From a virus (taxonomy: Duplodnaviria; Caudoviricetes), in IMG/VR virus record IMGVR_UViG_3300031555_003522, positions 96,001-160,000 of that record: a DNA stretch of 64,000 nt. One strand, given 5' to 3'. This document shows positions 1-57,280 of the stretch, one piece after another (position 1 is the stretch's first letter; every line of letters begins with the position of its first letter). The notes under the pieces were generated by a model. It was not told the DNA's origin, made no database searches, and worked only from the letters and a program-made list of their open reading frames with translations. Position numbers and translations under genes: made by a program.

Positions 1-236
1 AGTAAAACCGCAAGCTAATGGCGGAAGAAAAATCCGGCTCCTTTATAAAGTCACCCATTTATAAAGGATGAATATATAGTCTATACACTATTGAAAAATA
101 GTGGTACCCTATGGTGACAGAAGGTACTCTTATAAAGTTGCGTTTATAAGAAACTATCAATATCTAACGTAATTTAATCAATATATTCTCTCTAACCTTT
201 CATTAATTCTATATGATGAAAGGAGGTGTAAAACAG

Positions 237-1415
237 ATGGCTCAAAAATGTAAAGCCAATTCTGATAATTTGCGCGGTCATAAAGTTAGAATATATCCTA
301 CTGAAGAGCAAAAGGATAAAATACTATCTTTTATAGATTCATATAGAGCTATTTATAATATAGCTATTGGGTCTCAGATAGATTATTATCGTTCTGGCGG
401 AATATTTATTACATTTAATCAAATGTGTAAGAAATTTGCCGATATGAGAAATAATAATGAGAATTTCAAATGGCTAAATAATATGTCTATAGGAATTATA
501 AGAGAAGCTTTAATAGATGCTGATGTAGCATTTACAAAATTCTTTGCTAAGATTAATAGATTTCCTAAATTTAAGTCTAAGAAAAGATCTAAAAAATCAT
601 TTGGAACTAGATCCGATAGGTGTCATATCGATGGAAGAAATATTTATATATCAGGAGTAGGTTTGGTTGATGCTAAAGATCATCATATTCCAGAAGGGGT
701 TAGAATGTATAAAACCAGAATAACTTACGACGGATATGATAAATTTTGGTTTTCATGTACAACCGAAAAAGATATGGAATTTCTTCCTATTGAAGGATTA
801 GGTAAGCCTATAGGTGTTGATGTGGGTATAAGACACATGATAACAACATCGGATGGCGAAGTTTATGAACTATCAAATTTTTCGAAATTAAACAAAAGAC
901 TTAAACAAAAAACGCGAAGAGCTATGCGCTCTATGAGGAAATATATAAATCAATCAAAACGTACGAAAATCAAGTATGAGGATATACCAAAATCTAAGAA
1001 TCACTATAAACGAATGAAAGAATGGGTTAAGATTAGTAATCGTATAGAGAATAAAAAATCTTATGATACTAATGTGGCTACTAGACGTATAATAGATAAA
1101 CATCCTTCTGCTATTGTAATAGAGGATTTGTGTTTATCTAAAATGCGAAAAAGAAATTGGATGAAGAAATTCGTACCACAAATAGTATTTAGAGATATAC
1201 ACAGACAATTGGAATATAAGGCTGCTGAATTAGGTATACCTGTAATAAAAGCAGATCGATTATACCCATCATCACAATTGTGTAGTAATTGCGGTTCAAT
1301 ACGTAAACTTAATTCTTCCGTTTATAAATGTAAAGTTTGTGGATTACGGATAGATCGTGATCTGAATGCTGCTATAAATCTTAGAAATTTGGCATATAAA
1401 AATGCATATGTTTAG
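237..1415 (+). CDS. tnpB: TnpB RNA-guided endonuclease (IS607/IS605-type)
   Basis: N-terminal HTH (KVRIYPTEEQK), FPKFKSKK, RuvC-I GVDVG, RuvC-II VIEDL, Zn finger CSNC..CKVC, RuvC-III DRDLNAAINL; all three acidic catalytic residues are present. RBS AGGAGGTG at 221-228 favours ATG 237 over 213. Confidence 0.95.
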   Translation: MAQKCKANSDNLRGHKVRIYPTEEQKDKILSFIDSYRAIYNIAIGSQIDYYRSGGIFITFNQMCKKFADMRNNNENFKWLNNMSIGIIREALIDADVAFTKFFAKINRFPKFKSKKRSKKSFGTRSDRCHIDGRNIYISGVGLVDAKDHHIPEGVRMYKTRITYDGYDKFWFSCTTEKDMEFLPIEGLGKPIGVDVGIRHMITTSDGEVYELSNFSKLNKRLKQKTRRAMRSMRKYINQSKRTKIKYEDIPKSKNHYKRMKEWVKISNRIENKKSYDTNVATRRIIDKHPSAIVIEDLCLSKMRKRNWMKKFVPQIVFRDIHRQLEYKAAELGIPVIKADRLYPSSQLCSNCGSIRKLNSSVYKCKVCGLRIDRDLNAAINLRNLAYKNAYV

Positions 1416-1467
1416 TTTGCATATTACCACTTTCGGTGGATAGTGATATAATGTAAAAAGAATATAT

Positions 1468-1638
1468 GTACCGTGCACTATACACGGGAGTTAAAGCCTT
1501 TGGAGAGCCTCGTACCACGAAATTTATCTAAATTTTGTGGCCGACATGTACTCGCGATATATGTTGGAGGGGTTCTGTGAATTAGGAAATCATACTTAAC
1601 ACGTACAATAATTACGTTAGAAGTTGATATATAGAAGG
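1468..1638 (+). ncRNA. TnpB omegaRNA scaffold / transposon right end
   Basis: Immediately 3' of tnpB: hairpins 1471-1487, 1515-1540, 1541-1567, stem 1505-1511/1569-1575, TGAATTAGGAA, terminal hairpin 1590-1628, ending ..AGAAGG. The layout resembles IS607-type right ends. Confidence 0.75.
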
Positions 1639-2632
1639 CAAGTCGAGCACAATGATGAATATCTTATATCAGTTAAAGAAGTATAATCGTGACTATAAAA
1701 CAAAAGACCCGACGAAGAGACCATGTATCGTATTATTGACAATGGAGAATACAGTTATAGAGTCTATTGATCGACTCTTTAATATGGCTACAGGTCATAA
1801 GAGGATGACGGATTACTCTCCTGAGGGAGCAATGAGAATGTTCAGAGAAGAGGGTGAGCTATATCTAACGGATGAATCTCCGATAGATATCATCATCAAA
1901 TTTGAACCTTCTAATTCTGTGGACACAAGTTATCTATATACTCTTACCGAAGATCTTGAAGATCAAGGTATGGAAGTAATAGCACTATTCCAGGATTATA
2001 TTGGCCGTATTCGTTCAACTGAACGGCTCCAAGAAACTCGTTTGGAATATGGTGCAATTGTTGATGAGTTTAAAACATTTGCTGAGATTAAAGATATTCC
2101 TGTAATAACTGCTGCTCAGCTAAACAGAGATGCTTCTAAGCATATAGATGAAGGTCGTAAAGCCAGTAAGTCCGATCTTGTTAGACTTATTGGTAGATCT
2201 AATATTAGTGAGTCTATGTTGATCCTGAACAATATCGATGCAGGATTCCTGATAGCTCCAGAAACTACTCAAACAAATGAAAGATATCTTGGTGTACAAA
2301 GAATAAAAATTAGATATGATGCTGGAGATAGAGAATTTGTATACTTGCCATTTGTCGGCGATACACTAAAGCTAGAGGAAGATTTTGGAAGGGTTGCCGT
2401 ATTTAAGACAACTATGAAAAATGATCCCTTTGGTGGACAAATTGGCACAAATAAATCTCAGTATCAAACTAATACAATTATGGATCTTGGCCAGGTTATG
2501 AGATCTTCCGGAAATGAGAATAATATGTTCTCGGCCAAGGTCATGAGTGGATCTATGGATACTTTAGCAAATAAAAGTTCCATGGTATTCACAGAACTTG
2601 TTGAACCAATTATATTCGATGATGTTGTATAA
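1634..2632 (+). CDS. dnaB: DnaB-like replicative helicase, 3' exon
   Basis: In-frame (E)GKS Walker A remnant just upstream of ATG 1652; LTME, FQDYI (Walker B), ITAAQLNR, ISES motifs. Confidence 0.88.
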   Translation, partial: EGKSSTMMNILYQLKKYNRDYKTKDPTKRPCIVLLTMENTVIESIDRLFNMATGHKRMTDYSPEGAMRMFREEGELYLTDESPIDIIIKFEPSNSVDTSYLYTLTEDLEDQGMEVIALFQDYIGRIRSTERLQETRLEYGAIVDEFKTFAEIKDIPVITAAQLNRDASKHIDEGRKASKSDLVRLIGRSNISESMLILNNIDAGFLIAPETTQTNERYLGVQRIKIRYDAGDREFVYLPFVGDTLKLEEDFGRVAVFKTTMKNDPFGGQIGTNKSQYQTNTIMDLGQVMRSSGNENNMFSAKVMSGSMDTLANKSSMVFTELVEPIIFDDVV

Positions 2633-2635
2633 ATA

Positions 2636-2680
2636 AAATAGGCTAGAGGTTGAATCCTCTAGCCTATTTATTTTTTTTTT
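2636..2680. terminator. Bidirectional intrinsic terminator
   Basis: AAATAGGCTAGAGG-loop-CCTCTAGCCTATTT plus T-run, between convergent genes. Confidence 0.85.
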
Positions 2681-3095
2681 AATCTTTTTTATCATTATAA
2701 AATGATATAGCTTTAGCTTCAGAATTATATATATGGCTTATTAAAGATGACATATGATCTTTTCTAAGCATTTTAAGTCTCGGCTTAGTAAACTCTTTTA
2801 CATCTGCCATATCATTTAAGAGAAGTATTATAAAGTATAGTTCCGGATTACCATAGATATCATAGCATAAGACTTTAGGCTTATAGAAATATGCCCACTG
2901 TTGTGCCTCAGTAAGTTCAACGGTAACACAAGCATTTTTAAGCTCAGCTAAATAATCATTTACAACATTCAATACGGTAACCCAAGTTCCATTACTTATT
3001 TTATCTACAAAAGATAGATCCATATAATCTATACTAACGCTTTTACCAGATTCGATAAATTCCTCTATAGTCGTTGTTTCTTGAGGTAAAGACAT
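2679..3095 (-). CDS. LysM-like baseplate wedge protein (T4 gp53-like)
   Basis: Motif YKPKVLCYDIYGNPELYFIILLLN. Confidence 0.65.
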   Translation of the reverse strand: MSLPQETTTIEEFIESGKSVSIDYMDLSFVDKISNGTWVTVLNVVNDYLAELKNACVTVELTEAQQWAYFYKPKVLCYDIYGNPELYFIILLLNDMADVKEFTKPRLKMLRKDHMSSLISHIYNSEAKAISFYNDKKD

Positions 3096-3702: not shown

Positions 3703-4911
3703 ATGGGAAATATAGTACTAACCCCAAAGCAGCAATCTATCGTAGATGCTGCTGTAAAATGGTATTATAATTCATCTGAACAGATATTCCAATTTGCCGG
3801 TAATCCTGGTACTGGTAAGTCTGTTGTTATGGATGCAATTATAAAAGCTATCGGAATAGAGCCTATGGCTGTAGCTCCTATGGCATATGTAGGAGCTGCA
3901 TCAATAAATATGAGACTAAAGGGTTTGACAAATGCTAAAACAATTCATTCCTGGATTTATGAAATCGTAGAAGTTCCTGTTAGGGATGAATTAGGACGCA
4001 TTAAGATGAATGAATACTTTAATCGTCCGGAGTTTGTATATAAATATAGACTTAAAGATTTATCTCATATAGATCTTATAGCAATAGATGAGGGTGGAAC
4101 GGTTCCACTTAAAATGAGAAATGATATTTTAAGTCTTGGTAAAAAGGTTCTTGTTGCTGGGGATCTTGATCAATTACCTCCAGTTGTTGATCAACCAGCA
4201 TTTTTGGTGGATGGAGAGATTCACGTATTAGATGAAATCCTTAGGCAGGCTGCAAATTCAGCAATTATATATTTATGCCAAAGGGCTAAGAAAGGACTTC
4301 CTATCCATACTGGAATGTATGGTAATGAAGTTATGGTTATGGAAGAAAAAGATTTCCTTCCTATAGCCCCTCAAATGTTGCTTGCTGCTGGGGTTGTATT
4401 ATGCGCAAAAAATGAAACTAGAGCCAAATATACAGATCTTATTCGTCATGATGTTCTTCATAAGCACAGTATTCTACCAGATCAAGGTGAGAAATTGATC
4501 TGCAAAATGAATGACTGGAGAATGGAAAGTGGCGGAATTAATCTAACAAATGGTCTTACAGGTCGTGTTATAAATCAGCCGGATGTTTCTACATTCGATG
4601 GAAAATGCTTTAGAATTGATTTTATGCCAGATCTAGGCAATGCGCCATTTATGGAACTTCCTGTTGACTATGAATATTTCTCTGCAGATCCTCAAATGAA
4701 GAAGGATATGAAGAATTTTAATTTCCGTAATGGAGAAGCTTTCGAATATGGATACGTTCAAACTGTTCATACTGCTCAAGGATCTCAGTGGACTAATGGT
4801 ATTTATTTTGAAGAATGGCTTCCTCAAAATAATAATCAGCTTCATTATACAGCCTTAAGTAGATTCAGGAGTAAATGTATCTATATTAAGAAAAATAGAA
4901 AGTATTGGTAG
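3703..4911 (+). CDS. SF1B (RecD/Dda-like) DNA helicase
   Basis: GNPGTGKS, TIHS, IDE, GDLDQLPPV, EILRQ, TVHTAQGSQW, YTALSR. Confidence 0.92.
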   Translation: MGNIVLTPKQQSIVDAAVKWYYNSSEQIFQFAGNPGTGKSVVMDAIIKAIGIEPMAVAPMAYVGAASINMRLKGLTNAKTIHSWIYEIVEVPVRDELGRIKMNEYFNRPEFVYKYRLKDLSHIDLIAIDEGGTVPLKMRNDILSLGKKVLVAGDLDQLPPVVDQPAFLVDGEIHVLDEILRQAANSAIIYLCQRAKKGLPIHTGMYGNEVMVMEEKDFLPIAPQMLLAAGVVLCAKNETRAKYTDLIRHDVLHKHSILPDQGEKLICKMNDWRMESGGINLTNGLTGRVINQPDVSTFDGKCFRIDFMPDLGNAPFMELPVDYEYFSADPQMKKDMKNFNFRNGEAFEYGYVQTVHTAQGSQWTNGIYFEEWLPQNNNQLHYTALSRFRSKCIYIKKNRKYW

Positions 4912-9352: not shown

Positions 9353-12300
9353 ATGGCTAAGCCTACTAAGAATAATGAAGCCACAAATTTTGAAGAAAGC
9401 ATTCGTAGTTATGGTGATAAGATCGAACACATTGATACCTTTGTAGAAGCTGTGCGCCGATTCCCGGGTATGTATATCGGTGCAAAAAGTGATACTGGTT
9501 GGAAGGCATGTGGTCGAGAAATTTTCCAGAATGCTGTTGATGAGATTATCCGTGTAGAATCTCCTTGTCACTACGTAAAGATGAGTTTTGATGAAAGAAC
9601 TCAAGCTGTGGTAGTAGAAGATACTGGACGCGGTATTCCTCATGGTAAAATTATTGAAATCTATGCTAGTCAGCATACTAGTTCTAACTATTCCAAGAAA
9701 CCCGGTGAGTATACATCTGGTGTTCATGGTGTTGGCTCTGGTGTTGCTATGGCATTATCAAAATCTTTTGATATCTATTCGTACGTGCTTGGTGAAGCTA
9801 GGCATGTACATTTTGATTCTGGTGTATTATGGCCTGAAGGGGAAAAGGTTATTCCTTGTCCTGAGGGCAGACAGGGAACTACTGTTGTCATGACACCAGA
9901 CCTTGATGTATTAGACGAAGTAAATCTTACTTGCGAAGATTTCCTTGATCTAGTATTGAAGGTATATCCTCTTGTCAATGTCGGTGATAGAATAGATTTT
10001 ACCGGTATTGATAGAGATGGTAAAATCAAGTATCAGGAAGAATTAGTGAATAAGGATGGTATTATATCATCTCTTATGGTTAGAACTCAAGCTCCTCTTG
10101 TAACACCAGTACAGTTTAAAGATGATACTGGTTACATGAAAGCTGAGATCGCCTTCACTTATGACTCAAGTGATTTAACGTCTGTAGAAGATATTGTAAG
10201 TTATGCAAACTTTACACCTACAACTGGCGGCACGCACGTTGCTGGTTTTATGGATGGTGTGTGTAACTTCTTCCGAAACTACATGAACAAGATTTATCTT
10301 GGTGAGAAGTCTAAAGTTTCTGTGGTAAATAATGATGTCAAGACAGGTCTTAAAGTCATTATTGCAGCTGCTCATCTGAATCCTGTATTTGCGGGTCAGT
10401 TTAAGGGCATTCTGTCAAATGAAGATATGTATAAATATATCAAAGATCTGACTATGAAATCTTTGGAAGAATGGTCTAAGACGAGTCCTGGTGATTTGCA
10501 AAAGATTTGCAAGTTCATCAAGGAGATTGCTGAGATACGAATGAAGAGTGATGATAGTAAGATCAAGCTATCTAATAACTATGAAGCGAGTTCTCTTACT
10601 GGTAAGCCAAAGAAATATGTCCCACCCTCTGGACATAAAAATCTGGAGTTGATTATTGTAGAGGGTGATTCTGCATTAGGTTCTACTAAGAATAGTAGAG
10701 ATACTGCAACGCAAGGCGTATTCCCTGAAGTGGACGGGGCATTGACTAGTAATAGTCAATCGTAAACTTCCTTAATTGCTGGGATGCTAAGTATTATATG
10801 AAAGCCTTAGAAACTTTTATATAATATATGCTAATCAGCAGCCAAGTAGAAATCGGAAGTGATGCACTATGTATAATCCAATTATCTTTAATAATGAAGA
10901 GTTTAAAGATATAGTAATTCCAAATGTTAAACCGATATATTCTGTAAGCAATTATGGTACTATAATTAATAAAATAACCGGTGAGCAGATTAGCATGCAA
11001 ATTACAAGTGATGGATATTTAAGAGTGGGTTTATCGTGTTTAAATGGTAATACCAAACACTTTCTTGTCCATAGATTAGTATTAATGGCATTTTGTCCAA
11101 TACCTAATCCTGAATCGTTCGAGGGAAATCATCTTAAAGGAATAAAGATAGATAATAGGGTAGAGGAATTAGAGTGGACAACCACGTTAGAGAATAATCA
11201 TCATTCTTTTGATACGGGGTTGAATAATAATATACGAGAAAATCATGCAAAAGCTAAACTCACCAATGATCAAGTTCATTTAATATGTCAATGCTTAGAA
11301 AAAGGAATGACTATTAAAGAGATAGAACCTTTGATTATAGATACAGGATGTATAGATCTTGGAAGAAATATAAGAGCTATACGAGAAAGAAAAGCATGGG
11401 TTACTATAAGTAAGGATTATTCGTTTAGTAGCAGAAACAATAGAGATATGTTTTGTGATGATGAAGTTAGAATTATCTGTAAAATGATAGAAGCAGATGC
11501 CGGATATAAGAATATTTTAATATCATTAGGAATAGATATTTCTACTTTATCTTCAAAAGAGCTAGCAAATTATTGTGATATAATAAGTAATATTAGAGTG
11601 GGTAAATATTACTCAGATATATCTAAGGATTTTGATTTTTCAAAATCAAAGTTATTTAGACATGACCAAACTTTAGATAATGATAAAATAACTAAAGTGT
11701 GCAAATGTTTAGAATCTGGTATGAGTAGTACTGAGATACTAAATAAGCTTAATATATCAAAAGAATCCGTAGGTTATGAGAAATATGATAAAAGTCGACG
11801 GATTATAAATAAAATTAGAGCTAGAAAAGCATTCATTTCAATCTCTAAAGATTATGATTTCTAAAGGTTCAACGACTATCGAAAGGTATCTTATGATGAA
11901 CCGAGTAGAGTAGAACTCAAGCGAGTTTCGAAATGGGAAGGATCCATATAAATGGATCGTGATATAGTCTCATCTGTATGGAAACATACAGCAGTTCATA
12001 AGAGAACGGTATAGAAGTAGCGACTCTATATGAAGATATTGATCCGTGGTAAGTTGCCTAATGCATTTAAAACATCTAAAACATCTTTCTTAGCAAATCA
12101 AGAAATTGCTTCCATTATCACAATTATTGGTTGTGGATATGGTAAGAATTTTGATATAACTAAGTGTAAATTCGATAAGATAATTTTCTTAGCAGATGCG
12201 GATCCGGATAAGGTTGTGAGCTGTCCGGCTTAATAGAAATATTAAGAAAATAACTCTCTTAATTGCTGGAATATCTTAAAAATTGAGACAATCAGCAGCG

Positions 12301-13526
12301 AAGCCTCTTATATGAGGAACGTTCAACGACTAGTCGAAAGACGTAGGGTTCAAGCGAGCTCGAAATGGAGAGCCCTTAACAGGCAATGCTGAAGGTGAAG
12401 ATATAGTCTAACCTACATGGTGACATGTAGCAGTTCATAAGAGAACGGTATAAGTTTAGCGAACTTATATGAATATTAGGGTTCACACATTAATACACTT
12501 CTGCTTAGATTCTTTATCATGTATCTGCCAGAATTGATTACAGCTGGTAGGGTTTATCGTGCTGTTCCTCCTCTGTTTGGTATTAGAGGTAAGGGCAATA
12601 GTATGAAATACTTTACTACAAAGCTTGATTTCACTAAATATGTCCAGAATTTGTTTGCTCACAATCATGTGCTTACAGATATTAATGGGCGTAGACTTAC
12701 TAGCAATGAAACTACAAATTTATTCTTTAAGAATATAGATTATAAAGATCAAATTGAATCTATTGCAAATACTTTTGCGGTAGATCCTGATCTATTAGAA
12801 TCTGTATTATATCATCTCGCAAGATTTGTTGAGATTGGTAATCCTGAAGCTGTCGCCAGTATGGCTGCAAGGGCTAAAGCCGTAAAGGCTACTAGTAAGA
12901 AAGCAGAAAGTGCGACAAAAAAGAAAACAGAGGGTGCTAGTAAGGCAAAGAAGCAGACCTCTAAAAAAGAAGAAGATATTTCTGATGATGGAGATTTTAA
13001 TATAGAAGATATTCCTATCACAGAAACATCTGTATCTGCATCTGTAGCTTATTACATTAAACCTACGTTTAATGCAAAAGCTCTGAGAACAGAACTGAAG
13101 AAGTTATACAGATTCGTTGATATCGTTGAAGATAATGGTGTCATTAGAATTGAAGGACTTGTCAATAGTAGATATCAATATGTATTTATTAATGATAAAT
13201 TTATAGCTTCTTGTATTCCCCTTATCGAGACCATTAAGAATAATACTGACTTGTATTATCGTGTAAATGATGAAGCTGTTAGTTTGTATTCCTTAATGTG
13301 TCAATTCGATAATATGATCCCATCCGGCCTGATTAGATATAAGGGCTTGGGCGAACAGGATCCAGATCAATTGGCTGTATCTGCACTTCATCCCAAGGGT
13401 GATAGAACTCTTATTAGATATACTATTGAGAGCGCTAAAGAAGAAATCGAAAGTCTTAGACGAATCGATTCTAGTATGGCATCCTTGCTTAGAGAAGTTA
13501 AAATTACTAAAGCAGAGATTGAATAA
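9353..13526 (+). CDS. gyrB: DNA gyrase/topo II subunit B in three exons: 9353-10726, 12042-12209, 12480-13526 (862 aa spliced)
   Basis: RRFPGMYIG, EIFQNAVDE, DTGRGIP, GVHGVG, IVEGDSA; splicing restores QGVFP|IRGKLPN and DADPD|GSHINTLLL; C-terminal RYKGLGE. Confidence 0.95.
10727..12041 (+). mobile_element. Group I intron 1 of gyrB with HNH gene
   Basis: P1 CCCU|G..CGGGG with U-G wobble; core TTAATTGCTGGGA, AATCAGCAGCC, GTTCAACGACTA, GATATAGTCT; terminal G at 12041; frame restored. Confidence 0.93.
10869..11864 (+). CDS. Intron-encoded HNH homing endonuclease
   Basis: YSVSNYG, GYLRVGL, VHRLVLMAF, NHLKGIKIDNRVEELEW; three C-terminal repeats ending ISKD(Y/F)xF. Confidence 0.9.
   Translation: MYNPIIFNNEEFKDIVIPNVKPIYSVSNYGTIINKITGEQISMQITSDGYLRVGLSCLNGNTKHFLVHRLVLMAFCPIPNPESFEGNHLKGIKIDNRVEELEWTTTLENNHHSFDTGLNNNIRENHAKAKLTNDQVHLICQCLEKGMTIKEIEPLIIDTGCIDLGRNIRAIRERKAWVTISKDYSFSSRNNRDMFCDDEVRIICKMIEADAGYKNILISLGIDISTLSSKELANYCDIISNIRVGKYYSDISKDFDFSKSKLFRHDQTLDNDKITKVCKCLESGMSSTEILNKLNISKESVGYEKYDKSRRIINKIRARKAFISISKDYDF
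12210..12479 (+). mobile_element. Group I intron 2 of gyrB (270 nt, no ORF)
   Basis: P1 CCGGAU|A..UGUCCGG; P10 GUGAGCU with exon GGUUCAC; AAGATATAGTCT; terminal G at 12479. Confidence 0.95.
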
Positions 13527-45348: not shown

Positions 45349-48300
45349 ATGATTAAAGGTAGAAATCCTGGAGACAATATAACATTGATGAATACAATGT
45401 TTGTTCAAGGGACTGATCCATCTGATGGTAAATTCCATCAAACGATGACATTGGTTTATAAAGATCTTGATAGTGGTCTTAAGCATGTAGAGGAGATCGA
45501 CGATCCTGATTATGAATATTTTATGATTCACCCAGATAAGAGGGTGGATTATAATAGATTATTTGTATCTAAAGACGATGTAGAACGTATTGTAGTTCCA
45601 TATGGATCTTTGGAAAAAGATATAGCTTTGAGGCTTGGATTTAAAGAATTCTATTACGATAATATTCGTACTGGTAATAAAGGTGAGAATAGAAAACTTC
45701 ATATCCATCCTGATCTATTTAATAGTGATATGAATATAGAGGATCACTATAAATTCAGATTTGACAAGATGTATAGAAATGAAACTTGCCCTATAACAAA
45801 AGCATTTTTTGATATTGAGGTTGATAGTATTAATATGATGGGAGACTTCCCAGAACCTGGTGAATGTCCTGTTAATGCTATAACTCTTATTTGCCAAGAT
45901 GTTCATCAAGTATATACATTCTTGTTGAGAACTAAATCCAATCCTCAGATTATTGAATTTGAAAAGCAAGTTAATGACGGCTCTATATTTCCAGAATTAA
46001 CTAATTTCGTTATAGAGGCCGTTGGTGGTCCTCAAGTAGCAGCATCATATGAGATTAATTTTAATTACAATTTCTTATTCTATGATGAAGAAGATGAGAT
46101 TAATCTTATTAAGGATTTATTTGTAGCCATTAATATTCATAAACCAGATTTTGCACTGGCATGGAATATGGGCTTCGACGTTCCGTATATTATTCAGAGA
46201 ATAATAAATCTTGGATATGATCCTTGTGACATAATGTGCCATCAGGATTTTAAACGCAAGATTGTAAAATATATGGTAGATGAGAGAATGAAAAATGAAT
46301 TGGCTGAACGAGGAGATTATGCGGCAATATCTTCTTATACTGTATATCTCGATCAGATGATCCAATTTGCGTCTCGACGTAAAGGACAAAGTAAGTTTTT
46401 ATCATTCTCATTGGATTACATCGGTGAGCATATTGCTGGTGTAAGAAAGCTTGACTATAAAGCTATAACCACGAATATTGCAGAGCTTCCTTATAAATCT
46501 TATAAGACCTTTGTATTCTATAATATAATCGACACCATAGTTCAGTATTGTATTGAGATGAAGACAAAGGATATAGATTATGTATTTGGTAAGGCTCTTT
46601 TAAATAATACAAGATATTCTAAAACCCATAGACAGACTGTTTATTTGACTAATAGAGCTGCTAAAGTTTTTGATGCACAGGGATTTATTATTGGTAATAA
46701 TGCTAATAAGTTTAATAGCAAACCGGATGAAAAATTCCCTGGAGCGTTTGTAGCAGATCCTGAAAAAGTTAATAATACTTCTCGAATGCAAATTTATGGG
46801 TTATTTATAAACTTATTTGACAATTGTGTGGATTTCGATTAAGCAATAGTCGCTTAATTCAGTAATGGATTAAGAAAACTCCCTTAATTGCTGGAAACTC
46901 TAGCAGAAGTGATATAATTGCTTCATCCATATATTATAAATATGGTGCTAGACAATCAGCAGCCAAGAAAAATTGTAAAGGAGACTTTTATCGTGAGAAG
47001 ATATGAGTTCGAAATCCCTATAGATATAATAGATCCATCTATTCTATTGAATGGGGAAAGATTTGAATATATAACAGAAGATATTGTTCCTGGGGTATAT
47101 CCATATTATATGGTATCGAATTGTGGCAGAGTATATCACAGGTATCTTCAATGTATAATGAAACAGGGTTTAGAAACGAGTGGTTATCTATTTATAACTT
47201 TAGCTACTTGTAATGGGCCAAAGATAATTCAAATGAATAGACTAGTCTTAATGACATTTGACCCTAATCCAAATTGCCATGAACTACAAGCAAACCATAA
47301 AGATGGTAATAAGCTTAACAATTATCTCTATAATTTAGAATGGGTAACAAGATCTGAAAATATTATTCATGCATATGAAACTAAACTTCATATACCAAAG
47401 AGCAGTATTTCAGAAGATCAAGCTATTCAAATAGTAGAATTACTAAAAACCAATCAATATCAGTGTAAAGAAATAGCTATTATGATGGGTATTAATGAAA
47501 ATATAGTAAATTCTATTAAGAAAAAAGAATCTTGGAAAAGATTAACTAGAGATTGCAATTTTGATGCTAGACAAGGAAAGTTATATACGGATAATGATGT
47601 TCGTATTTTATGCGAATATTTTCAAAATAATCCAAAATTAGAAGGTCTAGAATCTAAAGCTTATGTACTAGAAGCTTTGATATCTTGTGGATTTGATAAC
47701 CCACAAGATAAAGTAGATACGGCAAGAAAGATCTATTCTAAAAAACATTATACTAGAATTTCTAAAGATTACAATTTTTAAGGTTCAACGACTATCGAAA
47801 GGATAATATGAGAGAAATACTCATATGAATAACCGAGTAGAGTAGAGTTCTAGTGAACTCGAAATGGGGAGCGTCCTATAAACGGTAACAGAATATAGGA
47901 TGATGATATAGTCTAATCTATATGGTGACATATAGCAGCTTACAAGCGGTATAAGATTAACGACCTTATATGAATAAAAATGTTTGCTTCGCTATACCCA
48001 TCTTTGATCCGTCAGTTTAATATAGCAGCTAATACTATTATTGGTAAGCTGATGATTAATGACAAAGTTCATGACAAAGAAAATATTTCTGATATGGATA
48101 ACTGGACTAGAGCTGGTGCATTTATGGAAGATATTCAGTCTCAGCAGTGGCTAGAGTTTACTTCCAGATGGTTTGGACTGCCAGATTATACTGTTCTGTA
48201 TCATGAAGTAGAGAGATTCTTTACGCAGATTGCTAATGCGTATCTCGGTCTTAGGGTCTACGAAAGAGATGGAACTATAGAGCCTATCACATTTGATAAA

Positions 48301-55993: not shown

Positions 55994-57280
55994 TTAGAAG
56001 CTAGTCTTCCAAGTCAGAGCATCAACGACAGCCTTCTCAGAAGTAACCTTCTCGTCAGAAGCAGCATCAGCCTGAGCAGCAAATTCAGCAGAACCGACGA
56101 TATCGGTCTTAGCTACGGCATAGCCCTGGACATAAGCCTGAGCACCAGCCTCGGTAGCCAGTACAGTAGCACCACCGGTCATGGTCTCGCCACCCAGAGT
56201 GTAACCAGAAGCTTCAGCATCGCCTTCAGCAGATGCGCGGATAACCTGGCCAGCAGCGGCAGCGTCGACCTTGTTCATCTTCTTATTGATGGACTCATTC
56301 AGAGCATCACGAACACCAGCAATGTGAGCGGCAACAGCGGCCTCAGTAGCCAGAGTAGTTGCATTGGGAGTCTCAGCCAGAGTAGCAGCACCAGCCTTAA
56401 CACCAGAATCAGCAATGCCACCCTCAGCAGTCAGAGTTGCAACATTACCAGCAGTAGCACCAGCAACCTTATCAACCTTGCCAGACAGATCCTGAGCAGC
56501 AACATACAGACCATTGTCGGTCAGGGTCAGCATATTACCGTCTGCCTCGGAAACAATAGCCTCAGCGGTGAACTCATTACCAGTAACGGTCAGCTGAACA
56601 CCCTTACCGCTCTTAGCAGTGTAGGTATCAACCAGATCGCCAACAGGAATCTCCAGATCTTCAGACTCATCATTGAAGGACAGGATGATCTTCTTAGTCT
56701 CATCATTATAAGTTGCAGATTCTACGAATCTTTCGAGATCCAGGTTAATAGCAGTACCCAGAGCAGTACCCTCAGCGTTCAGAATGGTCAGAGCGCCAGT
56801 AGAAGGATCATATGCCAGGGAAGCTGCAACATTGGTCATGGGCAGATCCTGAGTATTACCATCACCAGTGGTAACCTTCAGAGTATTGGTAGCGGCGGTA
56901 TAAGATACGCCAGTAACAACACTAGCAGAACCAGTAACATTAGCAATCTGCTCGGTGACATAGTCGACAACAGCCTTGCCAGTTACGCCCTGAGTTTCAT
57001 TGGATGCTTCGACAGTATTTGCAACAGGCTTAATGACGGTGGTCCAAGCGGTACCATTCCATATACGGCCTTCCAGAGTTGCAGAGTCGATGTACAGCTT
57101 GCCCATGGCAATGCCAGTGGTGGGAAGCGTAGTATACAGCTCAACAGACTCATTGAACAACTGAGTGCCGCGATACAGTTCGCCAGTATCTTCCAGGAAG
57201 CACAGCATGTCGTTGGTTACTTTGCCAGCCTGGACAGCAGCCTTATATGCGTCACTCTTAATAAAATACCAAGATAACAT
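55994..57280 (-). CDS. Fibre-like structural protein
   Basis: Ala/Thr/Gly-rich; N-terminal half paralogous to 58975-60897, C-terminus to 57386-58957. Confidence 0.75.
   Translation of the reverse strand: MLSWYFIKSDAYKAAVQAGKVTNDMLCFLEDTGELYRGTQLFNESVELYTTLPTTGIAMGKLYIDSATLEGRIWNGTAWTTVIKPVANTVEASNETQGVTGKAVVDYVTEQIANVTGSASVVTGVSYTAATNTLKVTTGDGNTQDLPMTNVAASLAYDPSTGALTILNAEGTALGTAINLDLERFVESATYNDETKKIILSFNDESEDLEIPVGDLVDTYTAKSGKGVQLTVTGNEFTAEAIVSEADGNMLTLTDNGLYVAAQDLSGKVDKVAGATAGNVATLTAEGGIADSGVKAGAATLAETPNATTLATEAAVAAHIAGVRDALNESINKKMNKVDAAAAGQVIRASAEGDAEASGYTLGGETMTGGATVLATEAGAQAYVQGYAVAKTDIVGSAEFAAQADAASDEKVTSEKAVVDALTWKTSF

Follow-up and report, generated by a model that had tools for sequence, protein, structure and literature searches.

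Introduction

What does a tnpB gene do inside a group I intron that splits the helicase gene of a phage, when no transposase gene accompanies it? The locus that raises this question lies at the left edge of a 64,000-nt stretch of viral DNA (the window; G000:C1:96001-160000) from the IMG/VR record IMGVR_UViG_3300031555_003522 (G000), which comprises 207,861 nt with a G+C content of 34% and is estimated to be 84% complete. In the element in question, a group I ribozyme core is followed by tnpB, the gene for an RNA-guided nuclease, and by a non-coding region resembling the omegaRNA from which such nucleases are guided; elements of this type are known as IStrons.

IStrons have been dissected mainly in Clostridia, where the transposase (TnpA) moves the element and TnpB re-cuts the vacated site. 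The guide of TnpB is the sequence that flanks the right end of the element. An initial annotation of the window had read the locus as an IStron-like, TnpA-less intron with a guide located in exon 2, and had regarded IStrons as elements of clostridial chromosomes. The latter view is too narrow; phage IStrons (of the Clostridium botulinum phages c-st and D-1873) and forms carrying only ORF-B were catalogued as early as 2014 (PMC4227781), and a published proposal holds that TnpB-only IStrons carry out intron homing (PMC13565253).

Judged from its sequence, the anatomy of a TnpB-only IStron is secure at this locus. The element is a further IStron of a known class, carrying the structural hallmarks of group B (IS607-type) IStrons save for TnpA and the penultimate base of the right end, and a function in RNA-guided homing or interference is plausible. 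Taken as a whole, a TnpA-less group B IStron that engages in RNA-guided homing is the best explanation of the data, and we hold it to be probable, if with some reserve.

Results

Splice Junction and Ends of the Element

The host gene encodes a divDNAB helicase and is found in two open reading frames (ORFs). We describe them with the aid of locus L003, which includes 8 kb upstream of the window (window position = L003 position − 8000); all features below are on the plus strand unless stated otherwise. The upstream ORF (253 codons; L003 7005-7766) has the C-terminal end ...YVYFGLPGVT before its stop codon, and the ORF at window positions 1652-2632 encodes the remainder of the divDNAB/DnaB_C helicase; between them follow about 480 nt without an ORF, tnpB, and about 220 nt without an ORF. 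When exon 2 served as the query, a full HMMER search yielded 649 relatives; most of the best ones are full-length proteins of 545-650 amino acids that begin to match at about residue 245. Exon 1 as a query against IMG/VR retrieved no relatives. The Walker A motif reads predominantly FGLPGEGKS in more than 100 intron-less homologues. A word-based search recovered intron-less helicases 93-96% identical to exon 2, and in the two sister contigs L190 (238 kb) and L191, which share the gene order and show 95-96% amino acid identity in the helicase, the gene is uninterrupted and reads GRCYVYFGLPGEGKSSTMMNILYQ.

One junction alone yields GLPGEGKS, the sequence of more than 100 intron-less homologues, and agrees with ...GGTG/AAGG... 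of the sister phages; it places the 3′ splice site directly after G1634. The junction is ...CCTGGTG (ending at L003 7758)/intron ...TATATAG (ending at window position 1634)/AAGGCAAGTCG (starting at window position 1635), with the glutamate codon split G/AA, and the insertion hence divides the Walker A codon run as G-L-P-G/E-G-K-S. Exon 1 (L003 7005-7758) lies upstream of the window; exon 2 (1635..2632; divDNAB/DnaB_C, Pfam PF20307) begins with codon positions 2-3 of the Walker A glutamate. When joined, the exons form an open coding sequence (CDS) of 1,752 nt that is co-linear with those of L190 and L191 and identical across the junction, where it reads ...GRCYVYFGLPGEGKSSTMMNILYQ..., to the intron-less L191. 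The intron starts with U and ends with G, and the whole element of 1,876 nt (L003 7759-9634) extends from window position −241 to 1634, its start lying 241 nt before the window (G000:C1:95759). An Rfam match to the S15 leader below threshold (29 vs. 39.5 bits) within the coding sequence of exon 1 (L003 7440-7538) is most likely due to chance.

Three other junctions were considered and rejected. GLPGV/GKS disagrees with the homologues and would require A as the last intron base; GLPG/GKS drops one residue relative to FGLPGEGKS and to the sister DNA; and GLPG/KS, which follows from the intron end at GG 1637-38 favored by the initial annotation, lies 3-4 nt too far 3′ and drops two residues of the motif. 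The claim that an intron splits the helicase Walker A motif is itself borne out by the upstream exon. Likewise, the comparison of exon 1 and of intron-less homologues that the initial annotation had suggested fixed the splice junction. The reading of the locus as an IStron-like intron without TnpA and with its guide in exon 2 finds support in the anatomy and in 10 related loci, but its right end had to be moved to G1634.

The Group I Ribozyme

The first approximately 400 nt of the element can be assigned, on sequence and covariation, to a Twort-like group I ribozyme of subgroup IA2. In a focused scan of L003 7740-8240, the Rfam model Intron_gpI (RF00028) matched L003 7764-8103 at model positions 1-253 with 60.6 bits (gathering score 50; E 5e-15), which agrees with the group I intron postulated initially. 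Broader Rfam scans (window positions 1-3000; an 11-kb locus) reported no intron. We ascribe this to a filter effect, because the 500-nt scan scores 60.6 bits; the same miss occurred with validated Staphylococcus introns and with eight related loci scanned together. Default Rfam scans can thus miss both the IA2 introns and the scaffolds of such elements, which are therefore probably under-annotated in phage genomes. Introns of Twort-like Staphylococcus phages share about 70% identity with the core, and one of them interrupts a CDS whose annotation joins two segments.

We aligned 19 ribozyme cores: eight from TnpB-carrying copies, four from ORF-less sister introns, five from IMG/VR copies and two from Staphylococcus phage introns. 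The consensus fold, to which P1, P7 and P9 were added by hand, has the group I layout, with P2, P3 around the P4-P6 domain, P7.1 and P7.2 as in IA2 introns, P3′, P8, and P9. In this fold 91.7% of the cells are paired, as opposed to 32-40% when the partners are slid by 1-3 columns; 70 of the 84 ribozyme pairs show compensatory change, and none of 500 shuffles matched any of these measures. P3 (93% paired) and P7 covary; the P7 pseudoknot is paired in every sequence (100%), with GACUA/UAGUC being swapped for GAUCA/UGAUC in nine of the 19. P1 to P7 are encoded upstream of the window, and the 3′ half of the core occupies window positions 1..150, with P7.2 at 9-23, P3′ at 34-37, P8 at 39-68, P7′ at 77-81, P9 with its GAAA loop at 86-103, P9.1 at 103-128, and P9.2 at 129-150. 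The tnpB gene is looped out after P9.2.

P1 deviates from the textbook form. The last three exon bases, G-Y-G, pair with an intron C-R-C located 16-18 nt downstream, and Y and R covary (U:A in three loci, C:G in seven); U is the first intron base in most loci and is followed by an internal loop and a small covarying hairpin. Because G is found on both sides, both junctions could formally be moved by one base, which would provide an exonic U; the intron at our locus would then end in A. An unusual P1, in which the last G of the 5′ exon pairs with C, is known from group B IStrons, and the boundary has been confirmed in vivo (PMC4227781; PMC13565253). The 5′ flanks of the loci, ours included (CTGGTG, CTGGTG, GTGGTG, GTGGCG, GAGGCG, ATGGCG, GCGGCG, TAGGCG and TAGGTG) conform to NGGYG, with one deviant (GGGGCA); locus L095 was left out of this comparison.

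tnpB and the Search for a Transposase

The tnpB gene (237..1415; ORF open from 213) encodes a predicted IS607-like RNA-guided nuclease of 392 amino acids with matches to the Pfam families Cas12f1-like_TNB, HTH_OrfB_IS605 and OrfB_IS605 (PF07282, PF12323, PF01385). As the initial annotation had noted, it possesses its own ribosome-binding site (RBS), AAAGGAGGTG, at 219..228, from which the likely ATG start at 237 is 8 nt further on; among 10 relatives, AAGGAGGT is kept in most and GGAGG in all. The claim of intact RuvC residues was confirmed as well: D203, E304 and D383, together with the zinc-finger cysteines C357, C360, C373 and C376 (CxxC...CxxC), are invariant among 32 homologues. The protein can be aligned over its full length with solved TnpB structures, the best being 8IAZ (E 3e-34), followed by ISDra2 (8H1J/8EXA; E 6e-27). 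By these measures, TnpB looks intact.

The closest of 1,545 TnpB homologues are 40-60% identical, with values of 50-60% at the top; most were found in metagenome contigs, of which several span 100-280 kb. The best bacterial matches are at most 34% identical and include genomes of Selenomonas and of the Bacillus cereus group, taxa from which group B IStrons have been described (PMC4227781).

In this genome tnpB is a single-copy gene. As stated at the outset for the interval between the ribozyme core and tnpB, no tnpA is present, and a search of the whole 207,861-nt record for serine-recombinase and Y1 transposases (PF00239, PF01797) revealed none. One group B IStron hallmark is hence missing here; IStrons lacking ORF-A are, however, an accepted subtype (PMC4227781).

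The initial annotation also drew attention to an AACC-N6-TA motif upstream of tnpB. This possible promoter-like element is present (194..205), but it fared less well in the relatives: AACN-N6-TW occurs upstream of tnpB in four of the loci, with 2.4 expected, and 91 of 500 shuffles reach four (10 relatives), so that a promoter could not be distinguished from chance. A motif of the form AACN-N6-TA recurs 39-43 nt before the tnpB ATG in three of 10 loci (window positions 194-205 and the equivalents in L007 and L009).

A Guide-RNA-Like Scaffold That Ends at the 3′ Splice Site

We aligned the region from the tnpB stop codon to 16 nt past the junction from 11 loci. In accord with the omegaRNA-like scaffold postulated initially, a conserved and covarying RNA element resembling an omegaRNA (also termed reRNA) follows the stop codon at 1463..1634. 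It comprises a first stem, CCGUG...CACGG (1471-1487), the conserved block GAGUUNAAGCCUUUGGAGAG (1488-1507), a long-range stem GAGNNN/NNNYUC around variable hairpins that closes at 1569-1575, and the block UGAAUUAGGAA (1578-1588), after which comes an AU-rich terminal hairpin. The consensus fold has 14 pairs, eight of them with compensatory change. A profile built from this region matches the genome once (window positions 1463-1622); in the relatives it always matches just 3′ of tnpB, and it finds no match in the ORF-less sister introns. Because the profile matches only beside tnpB and never in ORF-less introns, the 3′ region belongs with tnpB rather than with the ribozyme. A scaffold motif search in IMG/VR returned one true locus and two chance matches in coding DNA.

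An element of Selenomonas ruminantium with an intron core, tnpB, and visibly similar scaffold motifs does contain a member of the curated RAGATH-18 family at 72.7 bits and ends in ...AGCGG. In strain HD4 (L115), RF00028 scores 36.7 bits upstream of tnpB and RAGATH-18 is matched downstream of it (coordinates 2033-2297 and 3791-3863); this element is a useful bridge from the phage scaffold to a curated RNA family.

Similarity among the 11 loci begins at the first intron base and halts at the last, and the terminal G (omegaG) is invariant in all of them; in the 16 nt that follow, similarity is confined to loci in the same gene, and different genes have unrelated sequences. The ends of the element are thus its splice sites, and its right end appears from this alignment to coincide with the 3′ splice site. 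This bears on the idea that an ordinary group I intron gained a separate tnpB insertion sequence with its own ends inside the intron. Both tnpB and the scaffold do lie in the looped-out region after P9.2, and looped-out peripheral regions of introns often hold homing-endonuclease genes. Yet the scaffold is conserved up to and including the last base of the intron, all 11 loci cease to resemble one another at that point, no additional intron segment is found 3′ of the scaffold, and the ORF-less sister introns are entirely devoid of it. Right end and 3′ splice site are accordingly the same nucleotide, and two nested, independent elements strike us as very improbable.

An AU-rich inverted repeat spans a long range here and encloses both tnpB and the scaffold. 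Its 5′ arm (154..174) pairs with 1610-1630 at −24.7 kcal/mol (RNAduplex), within the segment (1610..1634) that forms the 3′ arm and the right end and whose last base, G1634, is the terminal intron G directly preceding the 3′ splice site. Nine of 10 related loci have a counterpart of this pairing, 15-25 bp long, between the region upstream of tnpB and the terminal hairpin (3′ half), and it stops 0-9 nt short of the 3′ splice site; inverted repeats of this kind, long, AU-rich and surrounding the ORF, have been described for group B IStrons (PMC4227781). The repeat would allow for a splicing fold and a guide-RNA fold that exclude each other. The two fates would compete because the 3′ sequence has two possible partners, its local one and the 5′ arm upstream of tnpB, and two competing RNA fates have been demonstrated experimentally for the C. 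botulinum IStron (bioRxiv 10.1101/2023.11.20.567912).

Related Loci in Other Phage Genes

We fetched and inspected the contigs of nine TnpB homologues; with further loci, our comparisons cover 10-11 loci. All nine reside in phage-like contigs, most larger than 100 kb, and all nine share one layout: a gene fragment, an intron core of about 450 nt, tnpB, 180-220 nt of non-coding DNA, and the second gene fragment. Interruptions were seen in the same helicase at the identical site (L007), in RNA polymerase (RNAP) beta at two sites (L009, L180), in a divergent DNA polymerase (L179), and in several unnamed genes, each with a precise in-frame junction. The RNAP junction NICG/VYGRENAGQ of L180 is matched by the uninterrupted NMCGVYGRENCGQ in L009, and by our reading of the sequence the junction of L009 restores the universal RGDK...GGKG motif. 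Beside the tnpB genes of the ten loci inspected no tnpA was seen, the search having extended to the whole record in the case of G000. More distant phage tnpB loci with an upstream group I core and T-rich 5′ flanks (e.g., ATTAT) occur in IMG/VR (L055, L040, L045) and look like IS605-type (group A) IStrons.

Spread over at least six unrelated genes is not explicable by homing into the same site. It would fit a transposon mobilized in trans, in which a serine-recombinase TnpA of the host or of another element moves the IStron to GG-containing sites and TnpB re-cuts the vacated site ("restorative homing"). The C. botulinum IStron works in this manner (bioRxiv 10.1101/2023.11.20.567912), and the IS607-like ends of the family, with a G-rich target and a ...YGG terminus, are suited to it. 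Set against this is the lack of a tnpA adjoining tnpB in any of the ten loci, and we judge mobilization in trans to be improbable for the element studied here.

The distribution of the intron is patchy. It is present in our helicase and, at the same site, in the 70-74% identical helicase of L007, whose TnpB is 60% identical to ours, and it is absent from many helicases with 76-96% identity, a finding that argues for either lateral gain or precise loss on repeated occasions. This pattern is pertinent to a third possibility, that of a bona fide IStron which has lost its transposase and is stranded, being inherited vertically with the helicase and tolerated by virtue of splicing, with a tnpB gene that drives no mobility or is decaying. 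The identities of TnpB and helicase between the two same-site copies are compatible with co-divergence of a faster-evolving gene, and the genome offers no tnpA. On the other hand, a closer set of helicases without the intron and a more distant one with it at the same base would demand many precise losses or lateral gain; moreover, the catalytic and zinc-finger residues are uniformly intact, full-length ORFs persist in 32 relatives, and compensatory pairs are retained in the scaffold. Two further features, the right end that departs from the family consensus at position −2 and the want of a cleavable empty site among the sampled relatives (both taken up below), speak in favor of a stranded passenger, which we nevertheless deem unlikely.

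Predicted Guide and Intron-Less Target Sites

Application of the TnpB rule to the right end at G1634 places the predicted guide template and target, AAGGCAAGTCGAGCAC, at 1635..1650, i.e., in the first 16 nt of exon 2. The predicted guide would then be AAGGCAAGUCGAGCAC, a correction of the guide CAAGUCGAGCACAAUG that followed from the previously assumed end, and the matched target together with its 5′-flank motif would be AAGGCAAGTCGAGCACAATG. The candidate motif NGGYG, present as the 5′ flank in 10 of 11 loci, parallels the tested motifs of IS607 TnpB proteins, AGGAG/GAGGG (G at −4, −3, −1) and TGGG (PMC11061315; bioRxiv 10.1101/2023.11.20.567912). Nine exact 20-mer matches in the Joint Genome Institute (JGI) metagenomes were dismissed, since all lie in unrelated high-GC P-loop genes.

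The target window belongs to the 3-4% most diverged 16-nt windows of the helicase alleles: 60 of 1,736 windows are as diverged in the comparison with L191, and 52 of 1,713 in that with L190. Around this cluster of synonymous changes, alleles with and without the intron are otherwise 83-87% identical. The divergence of the target window is suggestive of escape from cutting, but it is marginal and not significant.

Other Introns of the Genome

G000 contains an ORF-less sister intron of about 380 nt on the minus strand (G000:C1:179342-179737; L002 approximately 1405-1800) whose core is 76% identical; it interrupts a terminase-like gene after ...AACGGCG, would rejoin it as IERNG/VASSNKQMGFG, and lacks the tnpB-associated scaffold. 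HNH_3-type genes do occur elsewhere in the genome, as the initial annotation had remarked. An ORF with an HNH_3 domain at window positions 11064-11198 (19 bits, below the cut-off) may represent an HNH-carrying intron, the group I core profile matching weakly at a distance of about 1.1 kb (12290-12332); a second HNH_3 match (47293-47361; 28.9 bits, above the cut-off) lies within an open frame of 287 amino acids. Further, more distant matches to the intron-core profile at G000:C1:54241-57335 and 165230-166655, with an HNH_3 ORF at 56091-56222, mark the genome as intron-rich. In related phages, ORF-less introns of the same family are found 1-2 kb from the TnpB-carrying copy (L009 6033-6447, L011 2793-3170, L178 831-1205, L179 2236-2504); some share the gene of that copy and are possibly ORF-deleted derivatives.

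Discussion

How a TnpA-less IStron might operate in a phage helicase can be outlined as follows. The ribozyme would remove all 1,876 nt from the helicase pre-mRNA and join ...CCUGGUG to AAGGCAAG...; splicing would restore the Walker A sequence GLPGEGKS, and the helicase would therefore stay functional. The long AU-rich stem would loop out tnpB and the guide-RNA scaffold. TnpB may bind transcripts that escape splicing, and these would be processed to an omegaRNA with the scaffold end at G1634 and the first 16-20 nt of exon 2 as the guide. The complex would then cut intron-less helicase alleles in which a G-rich motif (NGGYG, here TGGTG) directly precedes a matching target. Upon co-infection, repair from the intron-bearing genome would copy the element into the cut allele, a process amounting to RNA-guided intron homing; where repair fails, the genome of the competitor would be damaged.

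Several observations weigh against this explanation, among them the empty sites. The intron-less alleles of the sister phages read CCCGGTG/AAGGTAAATCTTCGAC (L191) and CCCGGAG/AAGGTAAGAGTTCTAC (L190); 6-7 of the 16 guide positions are mismatched in them, always by synonymous changes. Among 21 helicase homologues in IMG/VR, the 20 with a contiguous Walker A motif (none was found in L212) have 6-11 guide mismatches, and no exact empty site (GGYG plus 16 nt) was detected in IMG/VR or the JGI metagenomes. The IS607 TnpB of ISFba1, a tested enzyme, tolerates not a single mismatch at positions 1-13 (PMC11061315); by this measure, the sampled sisters would be immune. The RNA features add to this. The right end reads ...AUAUAG (UAG), one substitution from the consensus ...AYGG (CGG or TGG) of the ten relatives; the scaffold in window positions 1400-1660 matches no Rfam family, with RAGATH-18 (RF03064) giving no hit at E values up to 10; and the 5′ exon ends in a G paired to an intron C instead of the canonical U, although G at this position is a published hallmark of group B IStrons. 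Finally, the NGGYG flank may reflect the P1 helix and not a TnpB motif, because the ORF-less sister introns share this flank and it pairs with the guide sequence of the intron.

One may go further and envisage a phage-adapted lineage of TnpB-only IStrons, in which the nuclease has replaced a homing endonuclease and is used by jumbo phages against one another during co-infection; the synonymous changes clustered in the target would then be the footprint of escape, and reverse splicing would account for the spread to new genes. Reverse splicing would use sites that match a very short internal guide, with exon GYG paired to intron CRC. We put this scenario forward as possible, but consider it doubtful. 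In an essential phage gene, an intact TnpB without a transposase leaves RNA-guided homing or the killing of competitors as the only obvious use of the nuclease. The locus supplies what is needed to approach the preferred reading, a TnpA-less IStron with RNA-guided homing: exact splice sites, a predicted guide with a candidate motif, sister alleles that naturally lack the intron, and about ten family members in further core genes.

Comparison with Known Systems

The closest parallels are the group B IStrons BcISt1, SrISt1, CbISt1-4 (CbISt3 and CbISt4 being located on the phages c-st and D-1873) and the CboIStron. Like the element described here, they combine a 5′ IA2 intron with TnpB and a guide-RNA scaffold in the 3′ part; their ends are the splice sites, the G of the 5′ exon is paired to an intron C, and U is the first intron base (PMC4227781). 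A G-rich 5′ flank, a ...GG terminus (in the relatives of our element), an AU-rich inverted repeat and alternative pairings are likewise found in the phage family. Our element differs in that it lacks a serine-recombinase TnpA, in its flank (NGGYG, theirs being AGGG, TGGG or GAGG), and in its end (UAG, as opposed to CGG). Moreover, its TnpB falls into a clade with 40-60% identity, the best bacterial matches reaching no more than 34%, and the gene it interrupts, in an uncultured and apparently lytic jumbo phage, is essential for replication.

Loss of TnpA with retention of an intact TnpB, as seen here, also characterizes CsISt1 of Clostridium sporogenes and the delta-ORF-A IStrons (PMC4227781). 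These are bacterial copies on chromosomes or plasmids, and, unlike our element, CsISt1 inserts after AG and ends in CAG. It is for this TnpA-less, TnpB-intact situation that TnpB-driven intron homing has been proposed (PMC13565253).

A further parallel is offered by IS607 TnpB proteins with an reRNA derived from RAGATH-18, such as ISFba1 (PMC11061315, which names PDB 8IAZ); the best solved relative of the phage protein is 8IAZ. The motif AGGAG of these systems resembles NGGYG in being 5 nt long and G-rich, with G at −4, −3 and −1 in both, and the scaffold motifs found here, GUACC-stem-GGGA-UUUAAGCC-GGAG, resemble the RAGATH-18 member of S. ruminantium. Elements of the ISFba1 type are plain insertion sequences and not introns, and the RAGATH-18 model goes unmatched in our element; as we read the 8IAZ alignment, the residues corresponding to the motif-reading N121, N122 and K80 are S, D and G in the phage protein.

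With the IA2 introns of Twort orf142, phage K and SEP1, the element shares a core about 70% identical, a position at a conserved motif of an essential phage gene, and an ORF looped out from a peripheral helix. The cargo of these introns is an HNH or other homing endonuclease, whereas that of our element is a predicted RNA-guided nuclease whose specificity would derive from exon sequence; here, in addition, the 5′ exon ends in G. The jumbo phage PhiPA3 offers a functional counterpart: gp210 is a nuclease encoded by an intron of a core gene and interferes with co-infecting jumbo phages (PMC11620839), and TnpB might likewise harm a co-infecting relative devoid of the intron. It is a protein-guided HNH enzyme of demonstrated activity (PMC11620839), while the element in the helicase gene of G000, known from its sequence, would direct its nuclease by RNA.

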